From contig JAHEKH010000089.1 of NCBI GenBank assembly GCA_024638445.1, positions 1 to 10,711 of the forward strand: a stretch of 10,711 nucleotides of DNA, read 5' to 3'. Both the position numbers and the translations under genes were made by a program. Below are positions 1 through 10,335 of this stretch, in pieces. The stretch comes from Gammaproteobacteria bacterium (GTDB taxonomy: Bacteria > Pseudomonadota > Gammaproteobacteria > Steroidobacterales > JABDKV01). Under the pieces are notes generated by a model. The model was given only the letters and a program-made list of their open reading frames with translations, was not told the origin of the DNA and did not search any database. How positions within the stretch are numbered: the stretch's first letter is position 1; each line of letters starts with the position of its first letter.

Positions 1-1527
1 GATTGCTGCCACTCCGGCACCATGACCCGCGACGTGTTTGGCGACGCGGTGCGCGCCGCGCCCCCGGACAAACGGTCCGTGACAGCGATGGATCTTCCGG
101 AAACCCCCGCCGATACGCGCGATATCGATTCCGAAAAACTCAGCGAGGCCGGCTGGCTGGAAATCAGCGATTCCTACGTGGTGGTCTCCGGCTGCCGCGA
201 CAACGAGCTGTCGCATGAATTTCCCAAGCAGGATCCGGACAACCGAAACGGCGCGCTGACTCACTTCTTTACCGAAGCCCTGACGCGCGCAACACCCGGT
301 ACCACCTATCGCGACGCCTTCGAATATGCCCGCGGCAGGATCAATGCGAAATGGTCCGACCAGAACCCCCAGATCGACGGCAAGCTGGATCGCGAAATTT
401 TCGGCGTGAAAGACATCGAGCCGATTCGCTATGTCGCAGTGAAATCGGTCGACGGCGACAAAGTCGTGCTCAACGGCGGCAAGGCGCATGGCCTGTATCC
501 CAACTCACAGTGGACCGTCTATCCGCCCGGCACCAAGAGCACCGACGGCGTCGACAGCCTGGCCGTGCTGGAAATCGAAAAAGTCGGGGCCCTGACCTCG
601 AGCGCCGTGGTGCGCGAAACGCATGGCGAGGTCGTGCCGATGTCGCGCTGCGTGGAGACCGCCACGGCGGCCGAAAAATTCCAGCTGGGCATCGACCTCT
701 CCGCACTGCCTGAAGCCCAGCGCACAGCGCTGGCCGGCGGGATCGAGGAATCGAAACTACTGACCAGCGATGCCGTGGACAACGCGCTCCGGGTCTACGT
801 GCTCGAACCCCGCAGCTCGGCCGGTCCCGATGACCCTGTTCCCCAGGTTGAAAAAGTCGATACCCCGACCTTCGCCGTCGTTGACAACGGCGGGCAGCTG
901 ACCATGCCGCTGCACCCGGTGGCCGAGGACGGCATCGCCAAAACGCTGGTCAGCAACTTCGAAACAATCGCCCGCTACCGCAATGCGCTGGCGCTCGACA
1001 ACGCGGACAGCAAGCTCGATGTTGAGTTCAACCTGTACCGCGAGGTCGATGGCAAGTGGGAGCTGGCCAACGGCGGCAACAGCGTTTTCACCGAGGGTGA
1101 GCGGCTGTCTATCGAGGTCATCAACAACGAGAGCAAGCCGATCCATTTCTGCATTCTCGATTTCGAGCTGACCCGGGCAATTTCAGGGTTTTATCCACAG
1201 AGCCTCACCAGCGAGATGCTGGCGGCCGGCAAGAAGCTGGAGCTCGGCCGGGAGGAAAACGTTACTGCCTACATGAATCCGAAAGAGGAATACCCCGAGG
1301 ACCGGGGCGTAGAAACACTCAAGATCTTCGTTACTACCGACGAGTCCGATTTCCGCTGGCTCCAGCAGGGTGCCACCCGCGATGTCGGCCTCAGCGCACT
1401 GCAGAAAGAGTTCATGGCCGCCTATGGCGGTCCGGCGACCCGCGCGGTGAAGATCGAGAAGAAAAAAGCCTCTGATGACTGGAAGTCAATCAACCGTTCG
1501 TTCCATATCAAGAGACGTTTAGTCTGA
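1..1527 (+). CDS. Caspase-like peptidase (C14 / metacaspase-type catalytic domain), 5'-truncated by the window edge, with a ~490-aa C-terminal extension of unknown function
   Basis: Frame 1 is open from nt 1 (D-C-C-H-S-G-T-M...), so the ORF listed as 22..1527 continues upstream. DCCHSG at nt 1-18 matches the metacaspase/paracaspase catalytic-Cys signature D[AS]CHSG. The downstream motif VSGCRDNELSHE (about nt 187-219) resembles the metacaspase SGC(Q/K)DDQTS(A/Q)D motif. Stop codon TGA at 1525-1527. The remainder has no recognisable motif. Confidence 0.65.
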   Translation, partial: DCCHSGTMTRDVFGDAVRAAPPDKRSVTAMDLPETPADTRDIDSEKLSEAGWLEISDSYVVVSGCRDNELSHEFPKQDPDNRNGALTHFFTEALTRATPGTTYRDAFEYARGRINAKWSDQNPQIDGKLDREIFGVKDIEPIRYVAVKSVDGDKVVLNGGKAHGLYPNSQWTVYPPGTKSTDGVDSLAVLEIEKVGALTSSAVVRETHGEVVPMSRCVETATAAEKFQLGIDLSALPEAQRTALAGGIEESKLLTSDAVDNALRVYVLEPRSSAGPDDPVPQVEKVDTPTFAVVDNGGQLTMPLHPVAEDGIAKTLVSNFETIARYRNALALDNADSKLDVEFNLYREVDGKWELANGGNSVFTEGERLSIEVINNESKPIHFCILDFELTRAISGFYPQSLTSEMLAAGKKLELGREENVTAYMNPKEEYPEDRGVETLKIFVTTDESDFRWLQQGATRDVGLSALQKEFMAAYGGPATRAVKIEKKKASDDWKSINRSFHIKRRLV

Positions 1528-1537
1528 AAGGCCCGTC

Positions 1538-3763
1538 ATGAAGTACCAGGACTTCCGTATTCGTATCGAGTCGAAGACCGATACCGGATTTAACGTGAGT
1601 GTCGAATCCCCGGCTGGCAACGCCGATGAACATATCGTCCTGCCGTTCGATATCGATGAGGCAATGAAACAGTTTCACCAGATGGGGCTGGTTGTGCGTG
1701 GCGCCGCCAGCCGCAAGGTAGAAATCGACGGCCCGGAGCCAATGAAACCCTCCGAGTTCGGCGACCAGCTGTTTCGCGCGTTGTTTACCGGCCGTGTCGG
1801 CAAGATGTACAACGCCATGTGCCGTGATCTGCAGGATCCTGAGATGGGGCTGCGCATAAACCTTCACCTGAACCTGAACGACGCCGGTGTCGGCGCGTTG
1901 GCCGGCGTTCCATGGGAGTTCGTCTACGACGCCGACACAATGGATTATCTGAACCTGAGCCGCCAGACGCCCGTCATTCGTTATCTTGACGTGCAGCGGC
2001 CAAACACGGTCCAGCCGCTAACCGGCAAGCTCAAGGTGCTGGTCGTGATGTCCAGCCCGAAAGGTGAGCACGCCCTGGACCTCGACAAGGAACGCAAGCT
2101 CATCGAGTCGATCTGGTCGGGCGACGATAACGTCGAGCTGACCATCAAGGAAAACCCCACACCGAACAAGCTGCGTTCCTGGCTGACCAACGACAATTAC
2201 CACGTGCTGCACTACATGGGGCACGGCGCCCATGACGACAAGACCGGGGTAGGCGCCCTGGTCCTGGAGGACGATGACGGCAATGCCAACCTGCTCGACG
2301 CTGAAACGCTGGGCACATTCCTGCGTAACGCGCCGACCATCCGCCTGGCGTTCCTCAACGCGTGTGACCTGGCCAAGACCGGTGAAGACACGCCGTTTTC
2401 CGGCGTTGCCAACCGGCTGGTGATGGCCGGTCTGCCGGCGGTCGTAGCGATGCAGTTCCCGATTTCAGACGATGCCGCCATCGCTTTCGCGCGCACCTTT
2501 TATACGCGGCTGGAGAAAGGCCAGCCGGTCGACGAGGCGGTAGCCCATGGCCGGACCGCTATCCTGGCCGACAAGCCGGGCTCCATGGAATGGGGCACGC
2601 CGGTGCTGTACATGCGCACGCCGGACGGCCGTCTCTTCGAGCGCCCGGGCGTTGAACCACCGGCAGCGGACCCGGCCGCGGCGGCGGAAACCGCTCCGGC
2701 CCCGCCAGCGCCTGACGGCTCGGTTTCGGTGCCGAAAAAAGGCATCGGCGCGGCGGCCGGCATCCTGGTGCTGCTGGCAGCCATTGCGGCCGGCGCGTTC
2801 TTCATGCTCGGCGGCAAGAAGGTGCCGCTGGATTTCGAGAGCGAGGAAATCCAGGCCTACATCGATGAACCGGTCGAAGTGAAGTTCATCGCGACCAACA
2901 ACCCGGAAGGCACGGCCCACCTGGACCAGTACAACGTGTCGGTGGCCGCACCCAACGCTACCGGCCTCGAAGTTTCCGACACCGACGAGATCAACGGTTA
3001 CTGGCGCACGATGATTACGCCGCGGGAGACCGGTGATTACGAGATCATTGCCACCCCGGTAGACGTCAACAAGCCTGATGCCGAGCCCCGCAAGAAATCA
3101 GCAAAACTGGTGGTCAGCATCAATCCGGAAGTACAGGCGGCTTACGAGACGGCTATGGCCAGCGTCAGTACCCCGGCTGTGGCCACCGAAGACCTGATAG
3201 AGACATTGACGGGTCTCGAAGCCCGCGGTCTGAGCGCTGAAATGCGGTCGGAAATCGAGAAAACCCGGGCGGCGCTCGAAGAAGTGGTCGCCACGAAGAC
3301 ACTTGCGCGCAGCGGGTTTGCCAGCGACTCGAGCACCCTGGCCGAAAAAATTGCGGCGTACGTAGACTGGAAGACCCAGGTGCAGGCGACCCGCGATTTC
3401 GAACCCACCGCCAGCGCCTACCCGGAGGTCATGCAGGAACTCGAGACCCTGGCCGGGCGCATGGATGTCGCCGGGATGACGCTGTGCACGAAGGCACCGC
3501 CGTGCAGCGATGTATCGCGCGTGGCTTCGGGTGGCCGGGTCTACACGGTAATCGAGTACACACCGGCCGAAAAGGGCTCGAAGGTTGCGGTGCTGTATCA
3601 CGCGATGCCGGACAACGAGGTCAGGAAGACCCGCCAGATGACCCTGGCCGGCAATACCACTCACGCCGACTGGTCGACCGCGCCCGCGCGTGGCAGCTAC
3701 GAGGTGAGACTGTACAACGATGCCGGCGACCTGCTGGTCTCGAAGCCCCTCGAAATCTACTGA
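1538..3763 (+). CDS. CHAT-domain (caspase HetF-associated) protease-like protein with a single predicted transmembrane helix and a ~320-aa C-terminal domain
   Basis: ATG at 1538 lies 10 nt after the upstream stop and is preceded by AAAGG. The CHAT His motif LHYMGHG has its His codon at 2222-2224. The Cys motif LAFLNACDLAK has its Cys codon at 2363-2365. A Pro/Ala-rich linker (PPAADPAAAAETAPAPPAP) is followed by KKGIGAAAGILVLLAAIAAGAFFMLGGKK, a hydrophobic helix flanked by Lys on both sides at about nt 2741-2815. The C-terminal ~320 aa has alternating beta-like and helical stretches with no known motif. Confidence 0.7.
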   Translation: MKYQDFRIRIESKTDTGFNVSVESPAGNADEHIVLPFDIDEAMKQFHQMGLVVRGAASRKVEIDGPEPMKPSEFGDQLFRALFTGRVGKMYNAMCRDLQDPEMGLRINLHLNLNDAGVGALAGVPWEFVYDADTMDYLNLSRQTPVIRYLDVQRPNTVQPLTGKLKVLVVMSSPKGEHALDLDKERKLIESIWSGDDNVELTIKENPTPNKLRSWLTNDNYHVLHYMGHGAHDDKTGVGALVLEDDDGNANLLDAETLGTFLRNAPTIRLAFLNACDLAKTGEDTPFSGVANRLVMAGLPAVVAMQFPISDDAAIAFARTFYTRLEKGQPVDEAVAHGRTAILADKPGSMEWGTPVLYMRTPDGRLFERPGVEPPAADPAAAAETAPAPPAPDGSVSVPKKGIGAAAGILVLLAAIAAGAFFMLGGKKVPLDFESEEIQAYIDEPVEVKFIATNNPEGTAHLDQYNVSVAAPNATGLEVSDTDEINGYWRTMITPRETGDYEIIATPVDVNKPDAEPRKKSAKLVVSINPEVQAAYETAMASVSTPAVATEDLIETLTGLEARGLSAEMRSEIEKTRAALEEVVATKTLARSGFASDSSTLAEKIAAYVDWKTQVQATRDFEPTASAYPEVMQELETLAGRMDVAGMTLCTKAPPCSDVSRVASGGRVYTVIEYTPAEKGSKVAVLYHAMPDNEVRKTRQMTLAGNTTHADWSTAPARGSYEVRLYNDAGDLLVSKPLEIY

Positions 3764-4947: not shown

Positions 4948-6099
4948 TCAGGCGTCACCGTTGACGTTGATCTTGACGGTGTCCTGCAGCACGCCGTCCA
5001 GACCGCCGAAGACGGTCAGCTTGTCCACCTTCTCTGTCACCTTCTCGAGCGTCTCCAGCTCCTTCAGGCGCAGCAGTGCGGGGTGCTCACTCATCAGGCG
5101 GGCGGTGTTCAGCAGCGCACGGGTCGCTGCCGTCTCCTCACGGCGCTTGATGACGTTCGCCTGCGCGGCCTTCTCGGCCTCGACCACCTGGTTCAGAATT
5201 TCCTTCATGTCACCAGGCAGGATGACGTCCTTGACGCCGACGTTAGTCACCTCGATACCGTGTTCGCCCACCGCGGGCGCAACCGCCTCGTAGATCACGC
5301 GATCCAGCTCACCCTTGTTCGCCAGCAGCGTGTCCAGGGTGCGGGTACCGATGGCAGTACGCAGGGCGAACTGCAGCTCGCGGTACAGCTGGCCGGTGAC
5401 GTCCACCAGGTCCTTGTGGGCCTTCACCGGGTCGGCGATCTTGTAGGCAGCGGTCAGGTTCACGCGCAGCGTGACCTTGTCCTTCGTCAGGATTTCCTGG
5501 CCGCCCACGTCCATCGCCTGCAGGCGCAGGTCGACATGCGCGATCTTGATGTTGCGGTTGAACTTCCAGTACGCGTGCGTACCCGGCTGCAGTACGGTCT
5601 TGAACTCACCGTCCACGGTCAGCAGGCCGACGTGCTGGTCGGCCACCTCGGTGGCGACGATAAAGTTCGCAACCTGCACCAGGTCACGCGGGCGCGCACG
5701 GCCCAGGACGGCCGCCTTGCCACGGGGAATCTCGAACTCCTTTTCGATGTTCACCGTCTCGACGGCAATCTCCACCGGGCCCTTCCAGTACAGCTGGCGG
5801 GTGCCCGGGGCCAGGACCGTGTGCATCTTGCCGTTCTTGTAGACGAAGGCCACCTCGTAGTCGCCCAGGTCCACAATCTGGAAGTGCTGCTTGCACAGCT
5901 CGTGCTCGTCATCGATCAGGAAGTCGACGATACAGTGCTCGAACTCGGGCACCGTCAGGTCGTTGACCTCGACCGCGACACGCTTGAACGGTGCAATGAC
6001 CCAGCGGACGCCAGGGCGCAGGATCTGCGTGAACATGCCGTTCACGAAGACCAGGCCACGCTCGTGCTGGGCAATTACCTTGCGTGTAATACCAAACAT
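4948..6099 (-). CDS. SPFH / band-7 (stomatin-prohibitin-flotillin-HflK/C) family protein with an extra ~150-aa N-terminal region
   Basis: The C-terminal 230 aa carries the typical band-7 pattern (QEILTKDKVTLRVNLTAAYKI...GIEVTNVGVKDVILPGDMKEILNQVVEAEKAAQANVIKRREETA...) followed by a coiled-coil tail. I place the start at ATG 6099-6097 (MFGITRKV) because GAGGAGAGA lies 5-13 nt upstream. The longer ORF to 6162 has no RBS. Confidence 0.75.
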   Translation of the reverse strand: MFGITRKVIAQHERGLVFVNGMFTQILRPGVRWVIAPFKRVAVEVNDLTVPEFEHCIVDFLIDDEHELCKQHFQIVDLGDYEVAFVYKNGKMHTVLAPGTRQLYWKGPVEIAVETVNIEKEFEIPRGKAAVLGRARPRDLVQVANFIVATEVADQHVGLLTVDGEFKTVLQPGTHAYWKFNRNIKIAHVDLRLQAMDVGGQEILTKDKVTLRVNLTAAYKIADPVKAHKDLVDVTGQLYRELQFALRTAIGTRTLDTLLANKGELDRVIYEAVAPAVGEHGIEVTNVGVKDVILPGDMKEILNQVVEAEKAAQANVIKRREETAATRALLNTARLMSEHPALLRLKELETLEKVTEKVDKLTVFGGLDGVLQDTVKINVNGDA

Positions 6100-6313
6100 G
6101 GTGTCTCTCCTCTTGTTTTGGTTGGATGAAATGCGGCTGATAGCTGCGACCGGCCGCCGCAAAAAACCGGTCGGTCAATGCCCGTGGATCACCTCCTTTG
6201 CTTGCAGAAAATTTGGGCGCTGCAACCCAGGAACCCGTGTCGCGGCTTCGCCGCAGGTTCGCCTTACGTCAGTGCCCCGTGTGGAGCGGCTTCAGCCGCG
6301 CTTCTTTGGGTCT

Positions 6314-6369
6314 GGTTCCGGGATTGCGCGAAAGAGCTGCCGGCAGATCGCTCGCGCAATCCCGGAACC
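6314..6369. repeat. Perfect 17-bp inverted repeat (ggttccgggattgcgcg / cgcgcaatcccggaacc) enclosing an internal palindrome ctgccggcag; a 56-nt composite hairpin
   Basis: Read directly from the sequence. Arms at 6314-6330 and 6353-6369, with the 22-nt spacer itself palindromic. The mirror-image peptides in the + and - ORF tracks (FRDCAKELPADRSRNPGTRP and FRDCASDLPAALSRNPGTRP) are a by-product of this symmetry. Confidence 0.7.
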
Positions 6370-6672
6370 AGGCCAGCCGGAGATTGCGGAAGGGGTTAGC
6401 GGGGTCGGCCCCACACCCGTGCCGCGGGCCTGCCGTGCGATCCGGGAAGCCTGGTAACAGTGACGATGCGCTGCGCCGCACTCCTCCCTGAGTGATCGCA
6501 CGGGCCTTGTGCCCGGGTTGGCGCATCGTGACCGCTACCCGGCGACCCGGCCGGGCGGCCGGCGCAGGCGCACGCGGGTGCTGCGACACTGGCCGAAGGC
6601 CGGGCGTCGCTCGGGGCGTTCCCCTTTGGTTTCCAAATAACGGTTAACAGCCGTTGGCTTTTCGCCAGTAGA

Positions 6673-6745
6673 GTGGAAAAGGAGGATTCGAACCTCCGAC
6701 CCACGACGTTCAGGTCGTTGCTCTACCCATCTGAGCTATATTCCC
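6673..6745 (-). tRNA. Degenerate tRNA-like gene or pseudo-tRNA (anticodon region GAA, Phe-like) at the distal end of the array
   Basis: On the minus strand: GGGAATA TA GCTC AGATGGGTA GAGC A ACGAC CTGAAC GTCGT GGGTC GGAGG TTCGAAT CCTCC TTTTCCA C. The D-arm and T-arm are good. The anticodon loop is only 6 nt. There are two acceptor mismatches (G1:A72, T6:T67) and no encoded CCA. Confidence 0.4.
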
Positions 6746-6897
6746 GATTGGCGCTCTTCGCCGGACGCTCGCTCGGTATACGCCGTGCAACACACGCGTT
6801 GGCGCACCGGACCGGGTTCTCAGAACCGGAACCGCTGAACGATTGCCGTAGCAGAAAGAACTCTGTGTGGCCCGCCGCAGGAATCGGCACGCCGAAT

Positions 6898-6978
6898 TGG
6901 TAGCCGCCCCCGGATTCGAACCGGGAATCACCCGGGTCTGAGCCGGGCAGGTATACCCGAGGTTCCCTTCAGGCGGCC
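6898..6978 (-). tRNA. Aberrant tRNA-like gene, 81 nt, anticodon loop CUCAGAC (CAG, Leu-reading) but no long variable arm and a non-standard D-region
   Basis: Acceptor GGCCGCC / GGCGGCT (7 bp, one G:U), discriminator A, CCA encoded. T-arm CCCGG TTCGAAT CCGGG. Anticodon arm CCCGG CTCAGAC CCGGG. Between the acceptor and the anticodon stem lie 24 nt (TGAAGGGAACCTCGGGTATACCTG) that do not fold as a canonical D-arm. Confidence 0.45.
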
Positions 6979-6990
6979 AAAGAAATTAAC

Positions 6991-7066
6991 TGGATCACCG
7001 CCGAGGACTCGAACCCCGACCCCGGGGTTCAGGGCCCCGTGTCCTGCCCGGTTAGACGAGCGGTGA
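6991..7066 (-). tRNA. tRNA-Gln (anticodon CUG), 76 nt, CCA encoded, C33 instead of U33
   Basis: TCACCGC TC GTCT AACCGGGCA GGAC A CGGGG CCCTGAA CCCCG GGGT CGGGG TTCGAGT CCTCG GCGGTGA T CCA. All four stems pair. The anticodon loop CCCTGAA gives CUG at positions 34-36 but lacks the universal U33. Confidence 0.65.
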
Positions 7067-7071
7067 CTATC

Positions 7072-7146
7072 TGGAGCGGCCCGGGGGACTTGAACCCCCA
7101 CCCTCAACCTTCGCACGGTTGTGCTCTGCCCTTGAGCTTGAGCCGC
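7072..7146 (-). tRNA. tRNA-Arg (anticodon GCG), 75 nt, CCA encoded
   Basis: GCGGCTC AA GCTC AAGGGCA GAGC A CAACC GTGCGAA GGTTG AGGGT GGGGG TTCAAGT CCCCC GGGCCGC T CCA. Clean cloverleaf. Position 32 is G, which is unusual. Anticodon GCG rather than the ACG usual in bacteria. Confidence 0.65.
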
Positions 7147-7151
7147 ATGAG

Positions 7152-7229
7152 TGGTTGCCCGCGGTGGAATCGAACCACTGTGCGTTCCGCCTTGTAAGGG
7201 CGGTGTCCGGCCACCGGACCACGCGGGCT
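7152..7229 (-). tRNA. tRNA-Val (anticodon UAC)-like, 78 nt, CCA encoded, irregular
   Basis: AGCCCGC GTG GTCC GGTGGCC GGAC A CCGCC CTTACAA GGCGG AACGCAC AGTGG TTCGATT CCACC GCGGGCA A CCA. Irregularities: A1:A72 mismatch, 3 nt between the acceptor and D-stem, a 7-nt variable loop and an A49:C65 mismatch. Confidence 0.55.
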
Positions 7230-7277
7230 TTTCGGCTGTGCTCCTCACCGGTAGCGCATGCTAGAGTTTCTGCGCCG

Positions 7278-8765
7278 ATGAACAACGAACACGACCTCGA
7301 GCTGATCCTCAATTCCCAGGTGCCCCTGATCGTGGTGGAAACCCACGACGAACCACCGATGCTCGAGCTGCTCAAGCGCGTTTCGCTGAGCCGCAACGCC
7401 GCCGACTACCAGCCGGTTTTCCGCTGGACGATTACCGACGGGCTGCAACGCATGGAGCTGGCGCTGCAGGACGACACCGAGGAACTCGACCCCGAGCAGG
7501 TGTTGCGGCATATCCGCAGGACCCAGCAGACCGGCATCTACGTGCTGCTGGATTTCCACCCGTACCTGAAAGACCCGGTCAATATCCGGTTGCTGAAAGA
7601 CATCTGCATCGATTTTCCGCAGGCGAAGCGTCATGTGGTTTTGCTGAGTCACCAGCTGGAGCTGCCGCCTGAACTGGAGGCCTTTGGCGCGCGTTTCCAT
7701 ATCGCCCTGCCCAACGAGCGGCAGCGCAACGAGATCATTCGCGAAGTCGCCTCCGAATGGCGCGAGGCCAAAGGCAAGACCGTGTCGGCCGATCCCCGCG
7801 CGCTGGAGCTGCTGGTCACGAACCTCGCCGGCCTGACCGAATCCGATACCCGCCGGCTGGCGCGTAACGCCATTTTCAATGACGGCGCAATTACCCGCAG
7901 TGATCTCGAAGGCGTGATGGCGGCCAAGTACGAGCTACTCAACCGCGGCGGCGTGCTCGGCTTTGAATACGAAACCCACCGGTTCTCCGACGTGGCCGGG
8001 CTGAGCCGGCTGAAGGCCTGGCTGGAGCAACGCAAGCCGGCTTTTCTCGGCGAGGCGCAGGCCGCCGGGCTGGACGTGCCTCGCGGGGTGCTGCTGATCG
8101 GCGTGCAGGGCTGCGGCAAAAGCCTGACCGCGAAAGCAACTGCCGGTGTTTACGGCGTGCCGCTGCTGCGGCTGGACTTCGGCACGCTGTACAACAAGTA
8201 TCACGGCGAGAGCGAGCGCAACCTGCGCGAGTCCCTGAAAACCGCTGAAGTAATGGCGCCGTGCGTGCTGTGGATCGACGAGATCGAAAAGGGGTTGTCG
8301 ACCGGGCACGATTCCACCGGCACGACCCGGCGGGTGCTGGGCACTTTCCTGACCTGGCTGGCGGAAAAAAACTCGCCGGTGTTTGTCGTCGCGACCGCCA
8401 ACGACATCTCGGCGCTGCCACCCGAACTGGTGCGCAAGGGCCGTTTCGACGAGCTGTTCTTCGTCGATCTTCCCGATTCGGATGTCCGTATGGCCATTTT
8501 CGAGGTGCACCTGCGTTTTCGAGGGCACGACCCGGCGGCGTTCGACCTCGCAAGGCTCGAGGCTGCGGCGGACGGTTTTTCCGGCGCCGAAATCGAGCAG
8601 GGCATCGTATCCGCGCTCTATGCCGCGCATGCCAAGCGCGAACCTTTATCGACCGCACACATCCTGCGCGAACTGGAACGGACCCAGCCGTTATCGGTCG
8701 TTATGGCCGAGACCGTGCACGCACTGCGAAGCTGGGCCGACGGCCGTACGGTGCCGGGACACTGA
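7278..8765 (+). CDS. Classical-clade AAA+ ATPase (FtsH/Cdc48/Vps4-type module) with a ~270-aa N-terminal domain of unknown function
   Basis: Walker [14 protein letters not shown], Walker [11 protein letters not shown] and the second region of homology [29 protein letters not shown], followed by a helical lid. Start placed at ATG 7278, the first ATG clear of the tRNA genes. No clear SD (only 48 nt after tRNA-Val). The longer ORF from 7119 would overlap two tRNA genes. Confidence 0.75.
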
Positions 8766-8797
8766 GTCGCATCGCGGCCGGGCAGAACCTCCCTGCC

Positions 8798-8872
8798 TGG
8801 TGCGGACAGCGGGAGCTGAACCCGCGGCTCTGCACCGGCAACGCATTGCTCTCCCCTTAAGCGGACATCCGC
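8798..8872 (-). tRNA. tRNA-Gly (anticodon GCC)-like, 75 nt, CCA encoded, non-canonical
   Basis: GCGGATG TCC GCTT AAGGGGA GAGC A ATGCG TTGCCGG TGCAG AGCC GCGGG TTCAGCT CCCGC TGTCCGC A CCA. The acceptor and T-stem pair. The T-loop TTCAGCT is atypical. The anticodon stem is weak (A27:G43), and there is an extra nt at positions 8-9. Confidence 0.5.
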
Positions 8873-8881
8873 AGGTCTTGT

Positions 8882-8956
8882 TGGTGGACCGTGAAGGACT
8901 TCAACCCTCATCTCGCCGGGTAAGAACCGGGTGCTCTGGCATTGAGCTAACGATCC
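8882..8956 (-). tRNA. tRNA-Lys (anticodon CUU), 75 nt, CCA encoded
   Basis: GGATCGT TA GCTC AATGCCA GAGC A CCCGG TTCTTAC CCGGC GAGAT GAGGG TTGAAGT CCTTC ACGGTCC A CCA. The D-loop lacks G18G19. The T-loop has G56 instead of C56. C27:C43 mismatch. Confidence 0.6.
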
Positions 8957-8961
8957 GTATC

Positions 8962-9036
8962 TGGGGTGGCCGGCCGGGTTTGCACCGGCATCGTCCGGGT
9001 TCACGGCCCGGGGCTTTGCCTTTAAGCGACAGCCAC
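8962..9036 (-). tRNA. tRNA-His (anticodon GUG)-like, 75 nt, discriminator C, CCA encoded
   Basis: GTGGCTG TC GCTT AAAGGCA AAGC C CCGGG CCGTGAA CCCGG ACGAT GCCGG TGCAAAC CCGGC CGGCCAC C CCA. C33 replaces U33. T-loop TGCAAAC. There is no encoded G-1: the upstream base is T. Confidence 0.55.
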
Positions 9037-9041
9037 AGAGC

Positions 9042-9116
9042 TGGTCGGGGAAAAAGGAATCGAACCTTCTGTCACGCGGGCCCAAACCGCGAGCTTTGCC
9101 ACTAAGCTATTCCCCG
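9042..9116 (-). tRNA. tRNA-Pro (anticodon UGG), 75 nt, CCA encoded, near-canonical
   Basis: CGGGGAA TA GCTT AGTGGCA AAGC T CGCGG TTTGGGC CCGCG TGACA GAAGG TTCGATT CCTTT TTCCCCG A CCA. C1:G72 and G37 are as expected for Pro. Confidence 0.8.
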
Positions 9117-9123
9117 GGGAAAC

Positions 9124-9197
9124 TGGTTGCGCGAGCCGGAATCGAACCAGCGTCTCGCCCTTATCAGGGGCGTGCTCTTTCATTGAGCTATCGCGCT
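9124..9197 (-). tRNA. tRNA-Ile (anticodon GAU), 74 nt, CCA encoded
   Basis: AGCGCGA TA GCTC AATGAAA GAGC A CGCCC CTGATAA GGGCG AGAC GCTGG TTCGATT CCGGC TCGCGCA A CCA. The anticodon arm is nearly identical to enterobacterial tRNA-Ile(GAU). A1:A72 mismatch. The D-loop lacks GG. Confidence 0.65.
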
Positions 9198-9204
9198 CGA
9201 GATC

Positions 9205-9280
9205 TGGAGAACCGGACGGGACCCGAACCTGCAATCGCCAGGTTGAGAGCCTGGCCGCTTATCGGTTTGCGTACCGGTTC
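9205..9280 (-). tRNA. tRNA-Glu (anticodon CUC)-like, 76 nt, CCA encoded
   Basis: GAACCGG TA CGCA AACCGATA AGCG G CCAGG CTCTCAA CCTGG CGATT GCAGG TTCGGGT CCCGT CCGGTTC T CCA. 3-bp D-stem with no GG in the D-loop. The T-loop has G58. A51:C63 mismatch. Confidence 0.55.
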
Positions 9281-9286
9281 AGTGTT

Positions 9287-9361
9287 TGGCGCCCCGTGCG
9301 AGATTCGAACTCGCGTCTGGCGGATCGACAGTCCGCTGCTTTACGCTCAAGCTAACGAGGC
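9287..9361 (-). tRNA. tRNA-Asp (anticodon GUC), 75 nt, discriminator G, CCA encoded
   Basis: GCCTCGT TA GCTT GAGCGTA AAGC A GCGGA CTGTCGA TCCGC CAGAC GCGAG TTCGAAT CTCGC ACGGGGC G CCA. All stems pair, but the D-loop lacks GG. Confidence 0.7.
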
Positions 9362-9399
9362 GGGTTGATATCAGGCCGTTCTCCGCTCTGCTCGTGTCT

Positions 9400-9417
9400 C
9401 CGGTAAAATGATACCGG
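9400..9417. promoter_or_regulatory. Palindrome ccggta-aaatga-taccgg in the divergent region between the tRNA array (minus) and the transporter gene (plus)
   Basis: Perfect 6-bp arms read directly from the sequence. It sits 46 nt upstream of the EamA start and 39 nt upstream of the first tRNA 5' end. No convincing -35/-10 hexamers could be assigned. Confidence 0.3.
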
Positions 9418-9462
9418 TTTCAATCGCCCGGCCCGGTTCCCCGAACCAGCGGAGTGTTTCCA

Positions 9463-10335
9463 ATGTTCGCCAGAATCGATGCGCGTGTCCTGGTCGTGCT
9501 CGGCGCCGTGTTGTTTTCCACCGGTGGTGCCGCTATCAAGGGCACGACACTCACCGGTTGGCAGGTCGCCGCGTTCCGGTCCGGTGTAGCCTGCATCGCG
9601 CTCCTGGTCATGATTCCGTCGGTGCGCCGAGAGCTGTCCTGGCGGGTGCTGCCGGTGTCGGTCGTGTATGCGACGACGCTGGCGTTGTATGTGCTGGCCA
9701 ATAAGCTCACGACGGCCGCCAACACCATTTTTCTGCAGTCCACGGCGCCACTGTATCTGTTGTTTCTCGGGCCGTTGCTGCTGCGCGAGCATACGCAAAA
9801 ACGCGACTGGTGGTTCATCGTTGCCCTGGCAGGCGGACTGGCGCTGTTTTTTGTGTCGATCGACGCACCAACCGAAACCGCACCGGCACCGCTCGCGGGC
9901 AACCTGCTCGGCGGACTCGCGGGCTTTAGCTGGGCGCTGACACTGCTCGGGCTGCGCTGGCTGGCCATCAGTGCCGGACCCGGATCAGCCGCCGCGGCGG
10001 CCGCAACCGGGAATCTGCTGACCTTCCTCGTTTGTGCTTACTGGGCGTTTCCGGTCGTCGACAGCGCACCGCGCGACTGGCTGTTGATCGCTTACCTGGG
10101 TGTGTTCCAGATCGGGGTTGCGTACGTGCTGGTTACCGCCGCGATGCACCGGGTATCCGCCCTGGAGGCGTCGCTACTGATCCTGATCGAGCCGGTGCTG
10201 AATCCCGTCTGGGCGTGGTTGTTTCTCGATGAGACCCCCGGCCGGCTCGCGCTGCTCGCGGGATCTCTCATCCTGGTGAGTATTACCGTGAGGACGCTGC
10301 AGCAACGCCGGTTGCCGAACTCTGGCGAACCCTGA
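9463..10335 (+). CDS. EamA / DMT-superfamily (drug-metabolite transporter) membrane protein, ~10 TM helices
   Basis: 290 aa and almost entirely hydrophobic, with two EamA-like halves (LANKLTTAANTIFLQSTAPLYLLFLGPLLLRE and LVTAAMHRVSALEASLLILIEPVLNPVWAWLFLDE). GGAG lies 8 nt upstream of ATG 9463. The GTG at 9454 from the ORF track lacks spacing to that SD. Confidence 0.7.
   Translation: MFARIDARVLVVLGAVLFSTGGAAIKGTTLTGWQVAAFRSGVACIALLVMIPSVRRELSWRVLPVSVVYATTLALYVLANKLTTAANTIFLQSTAPLYLLFLGPLLLREHTQKRDWWFIVALAGGLALFFVSIDAPTETAPAPLAGNLLGGLAGFSWALTLLGLRWLAISAGPGSAAAAAATGNLLTFLVCAYWAFPVVDSAPRDWLLIAYLGVFQIGVAYVLVTAAMHRVSALEASLLILIEPVLNPVWAWLFLDETPGRLALLAGSLILVSITVRTLQQRRLPNSGEP

Follow-up and report, generated by a model that had tools for sequence, protein, structure and literature searches.

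Outside Firmicutes, tRNA arrays have mostly been treated as horizontally moving L-arrays whose use is uncertain. Does a tightly packed run of different tRNA genes in a gammaproteobacterium belong to this mobile class, or to the chromosome in which it lies? The question is raised by a stretch of DNA of 10,711 nucleotides (nt), referred to below as the window (contig JAHEKH010000089.1 of assembly GCA_024638445.1), from an uncultured, GC-rich gammaproteobacterium of the Steroidobacterales. From its letters alone, an original prediction had described a minus-strand array of twelve tRNA-like genes between positions 6673 and 9361 and had assigned it to the accessory arrays of mobile elements and phages. 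The tandem array is real: ARAGORN and the Rfam tRNA model RF00005 agree on it, and its limits of 6673 and 9361 are exact. As to its nature, we favor, with modest confidence, a chromosomally anchored, lineage-specific pair of supplementary tRNA operons with fluid membership.

Run on the whole window at default settings, ARAGORN called nine tRNA genes, all on the minus strand within 6673–9361. RF00005 matched ten genes at its gathering score in the window and eleven in a finer scan of 6400–9600, with scores of 34.5–62 bits for the eleven against a gathering score of 29. The two methods combined give eleven genes, all of them members of RF00005 at the gathering score; a Leu-like gene, seen only at relaxed thresholds, is the twelfth and is filed as tRNA-like only. 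The predicted count of twelve therefore stands for eleven genes and needs this qualification for the last. In the direction of the minus strand, the array reads as follows.

9287–9361, minus strand: tRNA-Asp(GUC), first gene of block 2; called by ARAGORN, RF00005 59 bits, clean cloverleaf as minimum free energy (MFE) fold, CCA encoded
9205–9280, minus strand: tRNA-Glu(CUC); called by ARAGORN, RF00005 47.7 bits, CCA encoded
9124–9197, minus strand: tRNA-Ile(GAU); called by ARAGORN, RF00005 60.3 bits, CCA encoded
9042–9116, minus strand: tRNA-Pro(UGG); called by ARAGORN, RF00005 62 bits, CCA encoded, fully canonical
8962–9036, minus strand: tRNA-His(GUG); RF00005 50.9 bits, called by ARAGORN only at -ps90, C73 followed by CCA
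8882–8956, minus strand: tRNA-Lys(CUU); called by ARAGORN, RF00005 51.3 bits, CCA encoded
8798–8872, minus strand: tRNA-Gly(GCC), last gene of block 2; RF00005 34.5 bits, called by ARAGORN only at -ps90
7152–7228, minus strand: tRNA-Val(UAC), first gene of block 1; called by ARAGORN, RF00005 47.8 bits
7072–7146, minus strand: tRNA-Arg(GCG); called by ARAGORN, RF00005 56.4 bits, CCA encoded, A8 and G32
6991–7066, minus strand: tRNA-Gln(CUG); called by ARAGORN, RF00005 44.7 bits, CCA encoded, C33 and T73
6898–6978, minus strand: Leu-like tRNA-like gene; called by ARAGORN only at -ps90
6767–6844, minus strand: Y-shaped structured element of ~78 nt between the Leu-like gene and the terminal tRNA; not a recognisable tRNA
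6673–6746, minus strand: terminal tRNA; RF00005 47.6 bits, reported by ARAGORN with 'anticodon (ga)'

Block 2 (8798–9361, minus strand) thus consists of seven genes in the order Asp-Glu-Ile-Pro-His-Lys-Gly, and block 1 (6673–7228, minus strand) consists of Val-Arg-Gln, the Leu-like gene, the structured spacer element and the terminal tRNA. The two blocks are separated by a gene for an AAA+ ATPase that lies on the strand opposite to the tRNAs. The tight packing, the single tRNA per identity and the encoded CCA ends that had been predicted are all borne out, though the details differ in places. Gene lengths are 74–81 nt. Most spacers fall within the predicted 5–9 nt, with three exceptions: 12 nt between Gln and the Leu-like gene, 151 nt between the latter and the terminal tRNA, and an interblock gap of 1569 nt. 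CCA is encoded in 11 of the 12 genes and is missing only from the terminal one, as had been stated; in tRNA-Val, which also has a T stem of only 4 bp, an extra A separates the discriminator from the CCA (…GGGC-A-A-CCA). With 11–12 genes in 2,689 bp, the density is 4.1–4.5 tRNA genes per kb. Neither ARAGORN nor RF00005 found a further tRNA gene in the 10.7-kb window, and protein-coding genes, slipin on one side and EamA on the other, flank the array. It is therefore complete at this locus, and the expectation that it probably continues was wrong.

As benchmarks, the array tRNAs of the Stenotrophomonas phage Mendera and of a plasmid L-array score 37–71.5 bits with RF00005. The window genes overlap this range with a somewhat lower median covariance-model (CM) score, ~51 bits versus ~60 in the reference arrays. 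Pairwise identity among the members averages 0.595 with a maximum of 0.685, which is no higher than in the reference arrays, and recent internal duplication was rejected as the origin of the array on this ground. A relaxed ARAGORN search of the kind proposed with the original prediction recovered the Leu-like, His and Gly genes at -ps90, a setting that also gives two obvious false calls in the window. A thirteenth tRNA in the 151-nt gap was discarded, as it was called only at -ps80, where ARAGORN reports 27 'tRNAs', 12 of them the array.

Many members depart from the consensus. When the genes are compared with the canonical core (U8, A14, G18, G19, U33, T54-Psi55-C56, A58, a paired 1–72 and, in tRNA-His, G-1), tRNA-Pro alone agrees throughout. 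tRNA-Asp has the D-loop GAGCGTA without G18 (C18 in its place) and carries G14. tRNA-Glu has a D-loop without GG, the T-loop TTCGGGT (G58) and a single A.C mismatch in the T stem, and tRNA-Ile combines an A1.A72 mismatch with the D-loop AATGAAA (A19). In tRNA-Lys, the D-loop AATGCCA and the T-loop TTGAAGT together swap the elbow pair G19:C56 to C19:G56. tRNA-His has T at position -1 where bacterial histidyl-tRNA synthetase (HisRS) needs G-1, along with the T-loop TGCAAAC (G55) and C33 in the anticodon loop. tRNA-Gly is the weakest member, with a poor D stem, the T-loop TTCAGCT (G58) and an MFE fold that is not a cloverleaf. Unusual features extend to the choice of genes, as a GCG anticodon on tRNA-Arg is unusual for bacteria and Ile-GAU genes are normally found in rRNA operons.

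The anticodons were compared with codon usage in six confident window genes (2,591 codons; GC content at third codon positions (GC3) 0.80). For ten of the twelve, the Watson-Crick partner is the codon used most often for the amino acid in question, and these ten include all six informative cases (Glu-CUC, Lys-CUU, Gln-CUG, Leu-CAG, Arg-GCG and Gly-GCC), and the remaining two, Pro-UGG and Val-UAC, are U34 readers of family boxes. The anticodon set thus looks adapted to host codon usage. The same genes contain 75 GAA, 34 AAA and 5 CAA codons, and the array supplies Glu, Lys and Gln solely with C34 isoacceptors. Because C34 tRNAs cannot read GAA, AAA or CAA, other tRNA genes presumably must exist elsewhere in the genome. 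The restriction to C34 for these three amino acids, the tRNA-His without G-1 and the GCG anticodon of tRNA-Arg make it unlikely that the array is the cell's sole tRNA set.

Is the array anchored at this position? Relatives were found through the slipin protein, on short metagenomic contigs whose slipins are 72–78% identical to that of the window; the slipin of one further contig, L095, is given as 68%. Contig L092 (ENA, 5.6 kb; slipin 77%) carries, upstream of slipin and on the same strand, His-GUG, Lys-CUU, a 55-nt spacer, Arg-GCG, the Leu-like gene, a spacer element of ~100 nt and a CCA-less terminal tRNA. Contig L093 (slipin 78%; 97% identical to L092) carries Arg-GCG, the spacer element, the terminal tRNA and a Leu-like gene that is truncated at its 5' end, and on L095 the spacer element and the terminal tRNA lie at the contig end. 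Sequence comparison thus identifies the slipin-side locus as orthologous, and as chromosomal, in at least two or three lineages. The CM scores lie above threshold and the relatives hold the array at the same locus, in place of the sub-threshold scores and dispersed single genes that the original prediction had named as evidence against it.

The membership of the array is not constant. In L092, neither Gly nor an AAA+ gene nor Val lies between Lys and Arg, Arg and the Leu-like gene are not separated by Gln, and His is preceded by 74 nt that are not tRNA; the Asp-Glu-Ile-Pro block is apparently missing there as well. This shows that array content turns over between lineages, as the Gly–AAA+ ATPase–Val segment, Gln and Asp-Glu-Ile-Pro are present here and absent in the relative. 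To tell insertion from deletion of Gly–AAA+–Val, the 55-nt Lys–Arg spacer of L092 was compared with this segment of the window, and no significant similarity emerged. Near the relatives of EamA (79%, 73% and 68% identity), no tRNAs were found. Set against the horizontal gene transfer attributed to L-arrays, the slipin-proximal part is common to relatives at the same locus, and neither the upstream part nor the EamA junction has a counterpart in them; the sharing on the slipin side points to descent.

Substitutions in the shared, slipin-proximal tRNA genes indicate purifying selection, stems included. Compared with the orthologues in L092 and L093, the Arg stems show two double compensatory changes and one one-sided change to G.U; the His stems, compared with L092, show two double compensatory changes in the T stem and one one-sided change to G.U. 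All of these keep pairing. tRNA-Lys is identical to its L092 orthologue at 74 of 75 nt, the C19:G56 swap included, with no stem changes. In the terminal tRNA, eight covarying stem positions are changed on both sides and two on one side; its pair 1–72 is a G1.A72 mismatch in three of the four sequences and G.G in L092, and 6–67 is unpaired (T.T) in the window only. Overall, tRNA identity between the window and L092 is 82–99%, compared with 63% at the four-fold sites of slipin. Several deviant features are also kept in the orthologues, namely A8 and G32 of Arg, C19:G56 of Lys and G55 of His. Because the stems keep pairing, identity exceeds that of four-fold sites and the odd features are shared, the RNAs appear to be maintained by selection, and most of their peculiarities would not reflect decay. 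Local signs of decay are the 6-nt loop and acceptor mismatch of the terminal tRNA in the window, the window-specific C33 of tRNA-His, the truncated Leu-like gene of L093 and the weak tRNA-Gly.

The Leu-like gene was detected neither by ARAGORN and Rfam at default settings nor by RF00005 at E ≤ 10, yet its 7-bp acceptor stem and its T arm, with TTCGAAT, are both perfect, it carries A73 and CCA, and it begins 12 nt past the Gln CCA. Its variable loop is short, and its D region is oversized and ambiguous. The middle strand, GCC[C/T]GG, is complementary to both a downstream and an upstream strand. Pairing with the downstream strand (fold A) yields an anticodon stem with the invariant 7-nt loop CTCAGAC and the anticodon CAG, whereas pairing with the upstream strand (fold B) yields a competing hairpin with the loop ATACCT; fold A is the more stable by 1.5–2.2 kcal/mol in both species. 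Between the window and the relatives, a C-to-T change is matched by G-to-A in both partner strands, and a second change, T to C, likewise occurs in both. In this gene (window 6898–6978; L092 371–450), the two partner strands are near-identical and have changed in parallel between lineages. From the two lineages compared, the competing strands could be a mutually exclusive helix pair or the relic of an internal duplication.

The Y-shaped element that follows could be aligned in four sequences: the window, L092 (~468–541), L093 (~196–270) and L095 (~40–125). RNAalifold gives three helices in which 96.7% of cells are paired and four pairs are changed on both sides, compared with 30–40% paired in slid controls. 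The element has no Rfam match and may be derived from a tRNA.

The terminal tRNA has canonical D- and T-loops, the G1.A72 mismatch and no CCA. In the window, its anticodon loop is reduced to 6 nt (CTGAAC) and its acceptor stem contains the T.T mismatch, and it is probably defective in this genome. Among database sequences it comes closest to E. coli tRNA-Arg(UCU), at 86% over 56 nt. The 'Phe-like' identity assigned earlier is unsupported, given the 6-nt anticodon loop and the anticodons of the orthologues, which are CGG in L092 and L093 and CUU in L095. Further tRNA-like fragments lie 3' of the terminal tRNA: an anticodon-arm-like ACGG-CTGTTAA-CCGT in the window (6640–6654, minus strand) and T-arm-like fragments in the relatives, GGTTCGATTCC and GGTTCGACTCC (L092 ~655–700; L095 ~240–280). 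They have no Rfam match at E ≤ 1 (relatives) or E ≤ 10 (window) and may be remnants of lost array members.

The other features of the window are the following.

7278–8765, plus strand: intact gene for an AAA+ ATPase, Ycf46/SpoVK-like, 495 aa, Pfam AAA E = 9e-30
4948–6099, minus strand: slipin/SPFH gene, flanking the array
from ~9463, plus strand: EamA transporter gene, flanking the array
9362–9462, no strand assigned: divergent intergenic region from tRNA-Asp to EamA, with the inverted repeat CCGGTA-N6-TACCGG at 9400–9417
farther left in the window: a caspase-like open reading frame (ORF), a CHAT-domain protein and a small membrane protein

The AAA+ gene was considered as a functional partner of the array and rejected. 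Its full-length homologues are 49–67% identical and occur in Woeseiaceae and other Gammaproteobacteria, the best (66–67%) in Woeseiaceae. At none of 80 loci with AAA+ orthologues (up to 6 kb per side) does a tRNA array adjoin the gene, only two lone tRNAs being present, and none of the other genes of the window occurs at these 80 loci. The Woeseiaceae contexts have no adjacent tRNAs, although one locus has a distant tmRNA. Full-length phage homologues exist as well (phrog_8638, E = 3e-112, 377 bits), and AAA+ homologues of the phrog_8638 type are found in many siphophages of 70–110 kb (mycobacteriophage cluster O and Rhizobium, Rhodobacter, Pseudomonas and Vibrio phages). Neither of the two phages inspected, Rhizobium phage L338C and Pseudomonas phage SM1, has tRNAs beside this gene. 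As the gene is also missing between Lys and Arg in the orthologous array of L092, it is a passenger or an insertion and not a functional partner.

A 775-aa 'fusion' protein (P0002; L004, 2302–4629) was considered as an ORF running over tRNAs; this was rejected, as the protein is a tandem AAA duplication. It consists of two tandem partial AAA ATPase copies, which could represent a fusion, a duplication or an assembly artefact. In the window, the mechanical AAA ORF (7119–8765, plus strand) extends 159 nt upstream of the real ATG, over tRNA-Val and into tRNA-Arg. Caution is thus needed in annotation, because gene callers could over-extend the AAA protein across block 1 and one array member is invisible to default tRNA finders.

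The lone tRNAs at the AAA loci L033 and L085 were called by ARAGORN 3 nt longer than by Rfam, which fits an encoded CCA. An encoded CCA is normal for gammaproteobacterial tRNA genes and is not diagnostic.

Within the window, a search of the ORFs with Pfam, PHROGs and NCBIfam found no integrase, transposase, phage structural or conjugation genes, and PHROG matches were limited to the AAA ATPase, slipin and EamA. No att-like direct repeats flanking the array were found. GC content is 0.60–0.66 throughout the genes, tRNA blocks and spacers, and the AAA gene has the same GC3 (0.80) as the genes around it, with no break in composition. Comparison by blastn with 72,556 plasmids and 50,697 phages returned no similar array, only generic single-tRNA matches. 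In IMG/VR, no genuine match was obtained with exact or gapped patterns built on the odd features of Lys, His, Asp, Ile and the Leu-like gene and on the spacer element, the negatives from exact patterns being weak; two matches (L088 and L099) lie inside coding sequence and were set aside as chance. Two pattern scans of JGI metagenomes found no array either, a weak negative, as one pattern would miss the L092 orthologue by a single T-loop base. Every protein of the window is a singleton, and the genome collection used does not contain this contig.

The region 9362–9462 is the presumed promoter region of block 2. No consensus sigma-70 promoter was found in 6300–9700, and terminator-like matches fall inside genes. 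The 573-bp intergenic region between the array and slipin contains a 66-bp near-perfect palindrome (6309–6374; 33-nt arms, 88% complementary, -50 to -58 kcal/mol), which may be an element like the repetitive extragenic palindromic (REP) or miniature inverted-repeat transposable element (MITE) type, or a transcription barrier; the relatives have different long inverted repeats in this region. Directly upstream of slipin, L092 (1121–1417) and L093 (839–1135) have a 98-aa ORF that resembles the slipin N terminus (MLGIVRKEVASHESGLVFVNG...) and is absent from the window. Directly after the slipin stop, L092 has a near-threshold Rfam match to sroB (2585–2667; 42.1 bits against a gathering score of 44), also to SdsR/RyeB. 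At the far left of the window (22–3763, plus strand), adjacent genes encode a 501-aa protein with a weak caspase (Peptidase_C14) match and a 741-aa CHAT protein with a predicted membrane-spanning stretch and weak PADLOC matches to SAVED_CHAT and BovA; they may form a defence or programmed-death protease pair.

How, then, should the array be read? The tight one-of-each organisation on which the mobile-element or phage assignment was based is present, and together with the many non-canonical tRNAs it resembles phage arrays such as that of Mendera. Under this explanation, the array would have been acquired horizontally with an element or (pro)phage and would serve the genes of that element or evade host tRNA-targeting defences. 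Its absence beside the EamA and AAA orthologues of other genomes agrees with this, as do the full-length phage homologues of the AAA family (phrog_8638, E = 3e-112) and the neighbouring CHAT and caspase-like genes, which resemble the content of defence islands. However, integrase, transposase, phage and conjugation genes are missing from the window, as are att-like direct repeats, neither GC nor GC3 shifts, the anticodons fit local codon usage, three related contigs have the array in the same slipin-side location, and no homologous array emerged from the plasmid, phage, IMG/VR or JGI searches. We consider such cargo unlikely. We think it just as improbable that the array represents core tRNA operons, that is, the only genes of the organism for these isoacceptors, clustered by chance. 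E. coli has tRNA operons of up to ~7 genes, encoded CCA is likewise ordinary in Gammaproteobacteria, the anticodons match major codons, and the locus shows vertical conservation and purifying selection. Against this stand a tRNA-His without the G-1 that bacterial HisRS needs, deviations at near-universal positions (C33 in His and Gln, A8 in Arg, A1.A72 in Ile) and a class-I Leu-like gene, an Ile-GAU gene outside its normal place in rRNA operons, and the lack of Gly, Val, Gln and apparently Asp-Glu-Ile-Pro in the L092 array. Because the Leu-like gene is truncated in L093, members moreover seem dispensable at this locus.

Decay offers another explanation, in which the array is a transcriptionally silent relic and its genes are tRNA pseudogenes in the making. 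The terminal tRNA with its 6-nt anticodon loop and acceptor-stem mismatch in this genome, the 34.5 bits of tRNA-Gly, the median CM score of ~51 versus ~60 bits in reference arrays, the 5'-truncation of the Leu-like gene in L093, the C33 of tRNA-His specific to this genome and the failure to find a consensus promoter all agree with it. But substitutions are compensatory and all orthologous stem pairs of Arg, His and Lys remain intact, the genes are far more strongly conserved than synonymous sites, CCA is kept in 11 of the 12 genes and the short spacers are kept as well; we give a silent relic about as little credence as mobile cargo. Each of these three explanations, mobile cargo, sole core set and silent relic, is less likely than a supplementary operon pair. 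The most doubtful of the readings we weighed, by a little, is that selection maintains the array as structurally remodelled RNAs with a specialised job beyond extra tRNA dosage. Possible jobs are those of decoders that escape tRNA-targeting toxins or anticodon nucleases, or of regulatory or non-ribosomal tRNA-like RNAs. The remodelled features in question are the altered elbows (C19:G56 in Lys, G55 in His, missing G18 or G19 in others), A8 in Arg, C33 in His and Gln and the absence of G-1 from His, together with the short-variable-arm Leu-like RNA (two exclusive helices, three-way covariation), the tRNA-size Y RNA and a terminal tRNA that lacks CCA and has an anticodon that changes between lineages.

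If the array is a supplementary operon pair, each block would be transcribed as a polycistronic precursor. By analogy with the established maturation pathway of E. coli, RNase P would cut every 5' end, and 3' exonucleases would shorten the spacers of 5–12 nt, left as 3' trailers, as far as the encoded CCA. The products, once charged by host synthetases, would add decoding capacity for the most used G/C-ending codons; members with conserved elbow or core deviations may be less efficient or specialised. Several points weigh against this account. We infer the redundancy with other tRNA genes from 10.7 kb of genome, neither block has a consensus promoter or terminator that we could find, and the orthologues are limited to short contigs from two or three lineages. 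Among the contigs compared, none has an orthologue of the upstream half, Asp-Glu-Ile-Pro, and the EamA-side relatives are without tRNAs, which leaves room for an older acquisition by horizontal transfer. In addition, the terminal tRNA, tRNA-Gly and tRNA-His without G-1 look defective here.

Comparison with known systems places the locus among bacterial tRNA gene clusters or arrays. A tRNA array unit is defined by at least 20 tRNA genes at a density of at least 2 per kb (Tran et al. 2016, PMC4758250); the window array exceeds this density with its 4.1–4.5 genes per kb and, with 11–12 genes, has too few members. An L-array consists of same-strand genes that form one potential operon, with intergenic distances below ~200–1000 bp (Santamaria-Gomez et al. 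2021, PMC8421152). Spacers within the blocks are 5–151 nt, but one block is separated from the other by 1569 nt and a gene on the opposite strand. The array thus falls short of both definitions, having fewer than 20 genes and not being one same-strand operon, and no evidence of horizontal spread was found in the sequences compared.

Nevertheless, it shares with L-arrays such as the trn operon of PCC 7120 (PMC8421152) and the array of plasmid pIAE1 a large number of different same-strand tRNAs, very short spacers, a non-periodic order and a probably supernumerary status, and the likely role is the same, extra or conditional decoding capacity. It differs in being much shorter (7 + 5 genes), in its interruption by an opposite-strand protein gene and in its vertical conservation at one chromosomal locus, as opposed to a sprinkled distribution suggestive of horizontal transfer. 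The array of the Trichlorobacter lovleyi plasmid pIAE1 (NZ_CP058410.1, 115702–125853) comprises 22 same-strand tRNAs between HD-domain and RtcB ligase genes, with an embedded HNH endonuclease gene and a HipA toxin module downstream; its tRNAs are not in the PLSDB gene table. The match to it (E = 7) was rejected as a homologue, for pIAE1 carries a true L-array without homology in gene order or sequence. The window array has no neighbouring HNH endonuclease, RtcB or HD-domain genes, and whereas pIAE1 has U34 isoacceptors, its anticodons are C34 and G34, tuned to GC-rich codons.

tRNA array units (PMC4758250), such as that on the integrative and conjugative element (ICE) of Acidithiobacillus ferrooxidans, also have a high density and a content that varies among relatives by insertions and deletions, but the window array has fewer than 20 genes and no ICE context in the window. 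The Mendera cluster is likewise one-of-each with short spacers and some deviant tRNAs, but there are no phage genes in the window. Although the window Ile-GAU is 81% identical to the Mendera tRNA-Ile, the D-loop of the latter is canonical, so the similarity is generic to Ile-GAU, and no specific likeness was seen for any of the remaining tRNAs. Ordinary multi-tRNA operons and accretive A-arrays (PMC8421152) are, like the array described here, chromosomal, vertically inherited and variable in size among relatives, with processing by RNase P and 3' exonucleases. A-arrays, however, are often repetitive, whereas here there are twelve different identities with a heavy load of conserved non-canonical features, and the window array further differs from both by embedding a non-tRNA structured element and a CCA-less terminal tRNA.

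The array therefore provides a smaller counter-example to horizontally moving L-arrays, one with a conserved chromosomal position and host-tuned codons, in which members are gained and lost and unusual architectures appear to be under selection. If expressed and charged, its tRNAs would be natural tests of how far the tRNA core is dispensable, as seen in the 19:56 swap, C33, A8, a tRNA-His without G-1 and a class-I Leu-like gene, and the locus would document the birth-and-death evolution of a tRNA operon.

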